The notes under the pieces: generated by a model
Told to the model about the DNA's origin: nothing
Databases searched by the model: none
Seen by the model: the letters and a program-made list of their open reading frames with translations, nothing else
In this document: positions 34,493-34,966 of the stretch, in pieces
How positions within the stretch are numbered: the stretch's first letter is position 1
Layout of the letters: each line of letters opens with the position of its first letter
Sequence record: PQ666539
DNA: 64,000 nucleotides
Source: Shigella phage sb1
Strand: one strand, 5' to 3'
Position numbers and translations under genes: made by a program

Positions 34493-34966
34493 TTATTTGA
34501 ATGATTTGACGTACTGAATAGAACCTTTGCTATTCACGAAAGCGATTTTACCATTTTTGTTATAAATGGTATCAGTACGCTGATAACCATAAGTTTGCTT
34601 ACCAGATTGATAACCAACTAATGCAAAATTATCTTCGCCCATTTTATTCTGTTTGGCGCGGATACGTTCATGACCGTGCGCCATAAGAACCTTAGCATCG
34701 CCAGTTGAAATTGATCTACGAGTTTTTTCATCTTCAACTGTATTAACAAAGTCGTCAAATGAATCAAATTTAGCATGAGATTTATTATACAGTTTTCCAT
34801 CTACTGCATAATTATATCCCTGTACATCCATCTCAACTTCTGTACCATCATCCAATACAGCAGTAATTTTTTGACCTTTTTTAAATTTCAAAAGATCAGT
34901 AAAAGATTCAGCGATAATTTGAGAATTAATAGCTGCTTCAGTAATAAATTCTTGATATGTTTTCAT
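34493..34966 (-). CDS. Internal-protein-like head protein with capsid targeting leader (MKTYQEFITEA)
   Basis: ORF track; N-terminal leader matches the T4 IP capsid-targeting sequence with an ITE-A prohead-protease site. Confidence 0.55.
   Translation of the reverse strand: MKTYQEFITEAAINSQIIAESFTDLLKFKKGQKITAVLDDGTEVEMDVQGYNYAVDGKLYNKSHAKFDSFDDFVNTVEDEKTRRSISTGDAKVLMAHGHERIRAKQNKMGEDNFALVGYQSGKQTYGYQRTDTIYNKNGKIAFVNSKGSIQYVKSFK

Follow-up and report, generated by a model that had tools for sequence, protein, structure and literature searches.

On the minus strand of the window, a 64,000-nt stretch of Shigella phage sb1 (PQ666539), the listing of open reading frames holds an ATG-to-stop ORF of 157 codons at 34493..34966. 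The sequence AAGGAAA lies six bases upstream of its ATG. The translated protein matches Pfam family PF24183 (DUF7412) with an E-value of 3.6e-94 and 313.6 bits, where the curated cutoff of the family is 27 bits, and its residues 1-157 align with profile positions 1-158. It also matches phrog_3155, "internal virion protein" (4e-100). Comparison with T2 IpIV (LC348380 T2_127, annotated as "ipIV: IpIV internal head protein") gives 98.1% identity over 157 aa, with three substitutions, and the AR1 protein named "Ip4" is as close. A structural search of BFVD returned K3 Ip4 only (UniProt Q38388, "Ip4 [Enterobacteria phage K3]", 97% identity), and the copy in Sf21 is annotated as "similar to phage T2 Ip4". 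It is virtually certain that the ORF, here called ip4, encodes Ip4, the ortholog of T2 IpIV and K3 Ip4. Relative to pSs-1, substitutions fall 1/1/13 at codon positions 1/2/3, as in genes subject to purifying selection. The initial annotation of this DNA had reported an internal protein (IP)-like gene at 34493-34966. The ORF is real, carries an IP-type leader and lies on the minus strand, but the novelty implied for it has gone: this is the named Ip4/IpIV of T2, K3 and AR1, found in ~470 phage records. In other words, ip4 is an already named gene in its ordinary place, and ordinary for its phage group.

The first ten codons (34937..34966, minus strand) encode MKTYQEFITE, which by its likeness to IPII and IPIII of T4 is a predicted capsid-targeting sequence (CTS) ending in an I-T-E motif for gp21. 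The T4 proteins IPI, IPII and IPIII were translated from NC_000866 for comparison. Nine of the ten leader residues of the window protein (MKTYQEFITEAAINSQIIAE) are identical to MKTYQEFIAE, with which both T4 IPII (MKTYQEFIAEARVGAGKLE) and T4 IPIII (MKTYQEFIAEASVVKAK) begin; the single difference is A9T, at the X position of the motif. T4 IPI begins MKTFKEFTSTTTPVSTITE. The leader had been described from the start as nearly identical to the T4 targeting sequence, and this description is accurate. The likeness to IPII and IPIII is confined to residues 1-10, and residues 11-20 have no counterpart beyond A11. At the DNA level, the 5' end of T4 ipII aligns with the window at 100% identity over 51 nt (34943..34993, minus strand). 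This ribosome-binding-site and targeting-sequence (RBS+CTS) block takes in the end of denV, the Shine-Dalgarno sequence AAGGAAA, the ATG and codons 1-8, and with few changes it is also found in T4 ipIII, T2 ipIV and JLBYU22 ip10. The 51-nt identity, together with the whole-protein matches to PF24183 and phrog_3155 and the codon-position pattern of substitutions, places the leader match beyond chance.

In IPIII, residues 1-10 are enough for entry into the prohead core, with residues 4 and 7 acting in targeting and residues 8 and 10 in processing, and gp21 cuts after the Glu of L/I-X-E (PMC9026906). Ip4 retains Y4, F7, I8 and E10, which are all four functionally mapped IPIII positions. In an alignment of 14 DUF7412 clusters spanning 61-97% identity, F7, E10 and E20 are invariant, and two residues ahead of each Glu the clusters have I, L, M or V, apart from a single deviation at the second site. 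Codons 11-20 (34907..34936, minus strand; AAINSQIIAE) specify a low-confidence linker with a second motif, I-A-E, that is a candidate second gp21 site. The pLDDT of residues 10-20 is below 50 in the AF2 model, consistent with an exposed linker. The invariance of E20 and the pattern at the L/I position make a second cut after I-A-E20 plausible, and gp21 possibly cleaves Ip4 there in addition to E10. In the annotation of the T4 record X04567, the precursors run from residue -10 to +90 (IPII) and from -10 to +183 (IPIII). Cleavage of Ip4 after E10 would yield a mature product of 147 aa (16.5 kDa, pI 8.95) and cleavage after E20 one of 137 aa (15.5 kDa, pI 9.13), both basic like IPI-III, whose computed pI values are 9.0-9.65. 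The 157 aa that the initial annotation had assigned to the body are those of the whole precursor; the mature body would have 147 or 137. Judging from the leader and its motifs, we consider it highly probable that Ip4 is packaged and processed.

The mature body, taken as residues 21-157 (34496..34906, minus strand), is predicted to consist of a beta hairpin, three helices and a C-terminal beta sheet. In the AF2 model (pLDDT 76.6, pTM 0.70) these elements occupy residues 33-55, 70-103 and 113-156, respectively. Compared with T4 IPI, IPII and IPIII, the body has no similarity (best blastp E 0.87-1.3), in agreement with the earlier impression that it does not resemble IPII or IPIII. IPI* is absent among the structural matches of the model, and we detected no relation of sequence or fold to the bodies of IPI*, IPII or IPIII. 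A sequence search of the PDB gave nothing meaningful: its best match, a designed protein at E 0.0018, had no domain that passed. NCBIfam gave nothing above threshold. Homology of the body to a non-packaged protein was also looked for and none was found; the profile matches are DUF7412 and phrog_3155.

Searching 1.84 billion representative sequences with a HMMER profile gave eight matches, of which only three are remote relatives over the full length (E 4e-17 to 3e-22), and each of these belongs to DUF7412. At 35-39% identity to Ip4, these remote members still have an N-terminus of the form M-x-F-x-x-F-L-N-E-S. One of them (P0015) maps to a 381-kb IMG/VR contig, IMGVR_UViG_3300011242_000001, and has no close relative among cultured phages. 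Within 3.5 kb of this contig (L010, 7005..10474) lie four ORFs with unrelated bodies that have only their first 9-13 residues in common: the DUF7412 member itself (MNFEQFLNES, 157 aa) and three others (MKFADFLNEA, 138 aa; MNFEQFLNEA, 243 aa; MSFTNFLNEI, 83 aa). The cluster is a possible IP-type locus of packaged cargo with a leader of its own. From these comparisons, the DUF7412 body appears to have stayed joined to a leader of such kind over a long evolutionary distance.

The retention of a leader on so remote a body argues against the view that the Ip4 leader is a mere recombination scar and that Ip4 is an ordinary cytoplasmic early protein, not packaged at all. Such a scar could have arisen, as the 51-nt 5' block is identical in DNA to T4 ipII and so could be acquired by recombination; the absence of an exact late promoter directly upstream of ip4 also fits an early protein. 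Counter to this, the leader and both Glu positions are conserved in all clusters of the family down to 61% identity, and a leader of the same pattern stands at the start of the 35-39% relatives, whose DNA is unrelated. Moreover, the ten-residue tag of IPIII is by itself enough to package foreign proteins (PMC9026906). We consider an unpackaged Ip4 with a scar for a leader to be very improbable.

Given that no exact late promoter lies directly upstream, late expression of ip4 has to be assumed from sites upstream of e. Two exact matches to the late-promoter consensus TATAAATA occur just upstream of e (35960..35980, minus strand, at 35960 and 35973). They are the nearest exact matches for ip4 and could give e-denV-ip4 read-through transcripts. 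The number of TATAAATA octamers across the window is at the level of chance, so it is from its position only that a function for this pair can be proposed. A late promoter inside the 3' end of denV was considered and rejected: the octamer that reads TATAAATA in Sf21 is TATAAGTA in the window and TACAAGTA in JLBYU22, it encodes W-Y-K-Y, and, being unconserved, it probably represents mere codons. No Rfam family matched between positions 33500 and 36200. Within ip4, codons 29-34 contain two A6 runs (34867..34872 and 34877..34882, minus strand). If the first of them slipped by +1 A, the product would be exactly a 39-aa protein found in the database (P0020). T2 populations had zero variant reads or slippage at the ipIV repeat (PMC12633550), and we therefore rejected phase variation at the A6 tracts despite the frameshifted P0020.

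Two IP loci are known, and the gene lies in the one that spans the interval from e to vs.8; the other extends from 57B to the tRNA genes. T4 has the order e - ipIII - ipII - denV - vs.8, and the window, pSs-1, Sf21 and BW-1 have e - denV - ip4 - vs.8. JLBYU22 carries one gene more (e - denV - ip10 - ip4 - vs.8), and T2, which is without denV, has e - ipIV - vs.8 remnant. In Melville (Gelderlandvirus) and ValerieMcCarty04 (Jiaodavirus), e abuts ip4, which is followed by a second ip gene and vs.8; in Klebsiella phage 311F, Ip4 adjoins IpII. The second gene after the ip4 homolog bears a CTS in both Melville (L006 3063..3326, MKTYEEFINES...) and ValerieMcCarty04 (L007 3173..3475). The finding of an ip4 homolog abutting e in other genera of Tevenvirinae indicates that the IP locus between e and vs.8 predates the genus Tequatrovirus.

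The initial annotation had placed the IP-like gene on the other side of denV from T4 ipII and ipIII, and the synteny comparison confirms this placement (vs.8-ip4-denV-e against vs.8-denV-ipII-ipIII-e). It had also called the gene additional, which it is not: the bodies of ipII, ipIII, ipI and ip7 are absent from the whole window, and since there is no ipII or ipIII, Ip4 replaces them. As for the suggested cassette shuffling, the term is fair for the locus across T-even phages, where we count five arrangements, but it does not describe an event particular to this genome, because vs.8 - ip4 - denV - e is the standard order, common to pSs-1, Sf21 and BW-1. Cassette shuffling at the IP locus is correct in general, and neither new nor specific to the sb1 genome.

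The junctions of ip4 can be placed by comparison with T4. The sequence GGGAACAACCTGGACCTCATGATT..., which directly follows the denV stop in T4, resumes 18 nt past the ip4 stop in the window, and these clean edges relative to T4 identify ip4 as an indel of ~0.5 kb. Its right edge is marked by a conserved hairpin, GGGAA...CCTCATGATTCTATGAGG..TTCCC (34439..34477, minus strand), that stands downstream of ip4 in the window and directly after denV in T4. The spacer between ip4 and vs.8 folds no better than shuffled sequence (z -0.41), leaving a terminator role of the hairpin unsupported. T2 ipIV lies behind the same e-proximal early-promoter segment as T4 ipIII. Indeed, every gene in the e-to-vs.8 interval is preceded by a T4-early-promoter/stem-loop segment, and the ip genes of the interval have a near-identical RBS+CTS block in common. 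At the other edge, the last codons of the pSs-1-type denV (34976..34993, minus strand; K-N-I-Y-I-stop) are AAAAATATTTACATTTAA, which is the sequence preceding T4 ipII; T4 denV itself ends K-A-I-Y-A-stop, unlike the pSs-1 type. From its sequence, the overlap between the 3' end of denV and the upstream block of the ip gene has the look of an old site of recombination. That IP loci vary and have flanks prone to recombination was described in Repoila 1994, as cited in PMC2839356 and PMC3012670, and more than 30 IP variants are known (Arbiol 2010, PMC2839356).

Several genes around ip4 carry premature stops. In denV (35072..35392, minus strand), a TGC>TGA change at 35072..35074 introduces a stop at codon 107 of 138. 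Downstream of it, the remaining 32 codons have kept their frame and are conserved; a cluster of several nonsynonymous changes lies in the vicinity. With the loss of the C-terminal W-Y-K-Y-Y segment, endonuclease V is probably inactive; T2 is without denV altogether. Relative to pSs-1, nonsense substitutions on the minus strand are also found in e.5 (GGA>TGA, 38039..38041), e.6 (GAA>TAA, 38353..38355), e.8 (TAC>TAA, 39753..39755) and the gp151 homolog (TAT>TAG, 41066..41068). Together with that of denV, the in-frame stops number five in 19 genes; all are transversions, four of them G:C>T:A, and none involves an indel. They may have arisen as accessory genes decayed, in the course of the phage's laboratory history, or as artefacts of sequencing. 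Intact amid these five neighbouring stops are ip4, ip5 and an ORF of 187 aa.

The last two deserve mention as further internal-protein candidates in the window. At 43444..43701 (minus strand), within the 57B-to-tRNA IP locus, lies an 85-aa ortholog of T2 Ip5 (97.6% identity; phrog_3499, "internal head protein"), with the leader MKTFKEFAAKTTITE, which is of the IPI type; ipI and ip7 are absent. The 187-aa ORF (40005..40568, minus strand) is outside both classical IP loci, in the stretch from the e.8 side to the tRNA block. Its start, MKTYAEFLTE|AAK, is identical to the IPII/IPIII tag of T4 at 7 of 10 positions and retains Y4, F7, L8 and E10. The protein falls in phrog_2280, "unknown function", occurs in 164 phage records, and is a "hypothetical protein" in every record sampled; it has no Pfam match. 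Its AF2 model is all-helical and of low confidence (pLDDT 61.5, pTM 0.34), too poor for a fold search. We regard this ORF, on account of its leader, as a candidate unannotated packaged internal protein.

We searched a phage collection by tblastn and found Ip4 in 470 records. Identity is 95-99% in 306 of them, from Tequatrovirus phages of Escherichia, Shigella, Yersinia and Citrobacter, and 60-80% in 160, from Jiaodavirus-type phages of Klebsiella and Raoultella, Gelderlandvirus phages of Salmonella, and Serratia phages. The same searches with the T4 bodies gave 261 records for IPIII and 198 for IPII. Thus, of the proteins encoded in the e-to-vs.8 IP locus, none is as widespread in the collection searched as Ip4 (~470 records, compared with 261 for IpIII and 198 for IpII), and in T2-type phages without Ip1-3 it is the main occupant. 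Close to home, Shigella phages sb2 and pSs-1 align collinearly with the window over 20 kb, at 96.4-96.8% identity. At the distance of Salmonella phage Melville, Ip4 is 70% identical, compared with 66% for lysozyme e, 65% for RegB and 43% for vs.8. We interpret conservation of this degree across genera to point to a conserved rather than a hypervariable partner.

These observations suggest a course of events for Ip4. Translation of the precursor (157 aa) starts from a strong Shine-Dalgarno site nine bases past the normal denV stop. Residues 1-10 would then bind the scaffolding core of the prohead, as suggested by the 9/10 identity to the IPIII tag and the four mapped positions. The protease gp21 would cut off the tag behind Glu10 (I-T-E) and might take off a further segment behind Glu20 (I-A-E), to judge from the motif and the invariant Glu residues. 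By analogy with IPI-III, the basic mature protein (~15.5-16.5 kDa, pI ~9) would be kept in the DNA-filled head and injected with the DNA. Once injected, Ip4 would act ahead of all phage gene expression, and most probably on a host defence. We hold with good confidence to this explanation as a whole, that of an ip4 gene in the e-to-vs.8 IP locus of a pSs-1-like Tequatrovirus, whose product is loaded by its CTS, cleaved by gp21, injected and active on the host. In the searchable literature we found no virion proteomics, injection or functional study of Ip4, IpIV or DUF7412; the HY01 proteomics paper identified five major bands only.

What Ip4 does to the host can be approached through its better-known counterparts. 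Ip1, Ip2 and Ip3 each inhibit one distinct, diverged GmrSD type IV restriction enzyme (PMC12373910). By this analogy anti-defence is the best guess for Ip4, and we lean toward such a role, if only slightly. Ip4 could be a fourth subtype-specific inhibitor, directed at a GmrSD outside the tested panels and binding the nuclease on arrival like IPI*. All three characterised T4 Ips do so, each for a different and highly diverged GmrSD. The GmrSD systems of ECOR17, ECOR21 and CT596 all restrict T2, a phage with Ip4 but without Ip1-3 (PMC12373910); thus these three systems are not the targets of Ip4, which leaves room for others. However, the same 2025 study found no reproducible inhibition or interaction when ip4-10 were assayed against a panel of active GmrSD variants (PMC12373910, Supplementary Fig. 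9), and Ip4 is without similarity of sequence or fold to IPI-III. Furthermore, Ip4 persists at 61-70% identity in phages of Klebsiella, Salmonella, Serratia and Raoultella, which would be uncommon if it inhibited a hypervariable enzyme. Judging from the sequence comparisons, conservation across genera at a level typical of enzymes is unexpected for an inhibitor in a fast arms race. The negative panel, the restriction of T2 by all three systems and the 70% identity to Melville together weaken the GmrSD reading. We regard a GmrSD-type type IV nuclease as a doubtful target, and rate a fourth inhibitor of the IPI* kind as unlikely.

Alternatively, Ip4 may be a bulk basic protein that associates with DNA and fills the head, or assists in core assembly, taking over the morphogenetic role of IPIII. 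This is compatible with the explanation given above. The window lacks ipII and ipIII, and mature Ip4 has a predicted pI of 9.0-9.1, in keeping with the basic IPI-III (9.0-9.65). Polyheads build up in T4 mutants that lack IPIII and in triple-IP mutants, and gp22 and the IPs purify together (PMC9026906). The conservation of Ip4 across genera, like that of lysozyme and RegB, would fit a partner internal to the phage. Arguing against this case, many Tevenvirinae, T4 among them, are without Ip4, which must be dispensable for head assembly in general. Also, IPIII itself inhibits a GmrSD system (PMC12373910), so that a protein with a morphogenetic phenotype may still be an effector. A head-filling or core-assembly function strikes us as rather improbable, though still a live alternative.

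A third possibility is that DUF7412/Ip4 has long been a packaged, conserved cargo and acts on some component or defence of the host that is conserved across the Enterobacteriaceae, and not on the hypervariable GmrSD. If true, this would explain the lysozyme-like conservation across three genera of Tevenvirinae, the negative GmrSD panel and the reappearance of the family, with a different local leader, in the 381-kb phage cluster. We put this forward tentatively, as a possibility somewhat short of likely. The gene flagged at this locus is neither a new effector nor a genome-specific rearrangement; it is widely annotated and stands in its standard position. The target of Ip4 would be of value to a phage therapist or a biologist of defence systems, and what the window offers toward it is the conservation pattern and the remote homologs.

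Among known internal proteins, the closest to the window protein are the Ip4/IpIV of T2, K3 and AR1, which have the same length (157 aa), 97-98% identity, the same leader and a locus downstream of e and upstream of vs.8. T2 differs in that it has no denV and ipIV comes directly after e, whereas in the window denV, with its premature stop, lies between e and ip4. T4 IPII and IPIII, inhibitors of GmrSD-ECOR21 and GmrSD-ECOR17, respectively, resemble Ip4 in nine of ten leader residues, in the L/I-X-E motif, in the e-to-vs.8 locus and in a basic mature protein, and the RBS+CTS DNA of ipII is identical to the window over 51 nt. They differ in having unrelated bodies and in the place of their genes, which are on the e side of denV; ip4 is on the vs.8 side. 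T4 IPI*, the inhibitor of GmrSD-CT596 with a solved NMR structure, is likewise a small basic protein from a CTS-bearing precursor, with a mixed beta-sheet and helix fold (PMC3012670), and it is by analogy that injection of Ip4 is proposed. Its leader is of another type (MKTFKEF..., cut after residue 19), its locus is that between 57B and the tRNA genes, and it has no sequence similarity to Ip4. The arrangement around ip4 resembles the PeSL-analogous IP loci (Repoila 1994; Arbiol 2010, PMC2839356) in the early-promoter/stem-loop before each gene and in indel edges that fall in conserved flanks; relative to the published variable loci the window adds nothing new, as it represents one fixed and common configuration. 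The cluster of the 381-kb phage is the most distant parallel. There, too, a DUF7412 member with an M-x-F-x-x-F-L-N-E leader stands beside three unrelated ORFs with the same leader, in a setting that differs by its other leader sequence and by the much larger, AT-rich genome of an uncultivated phage.
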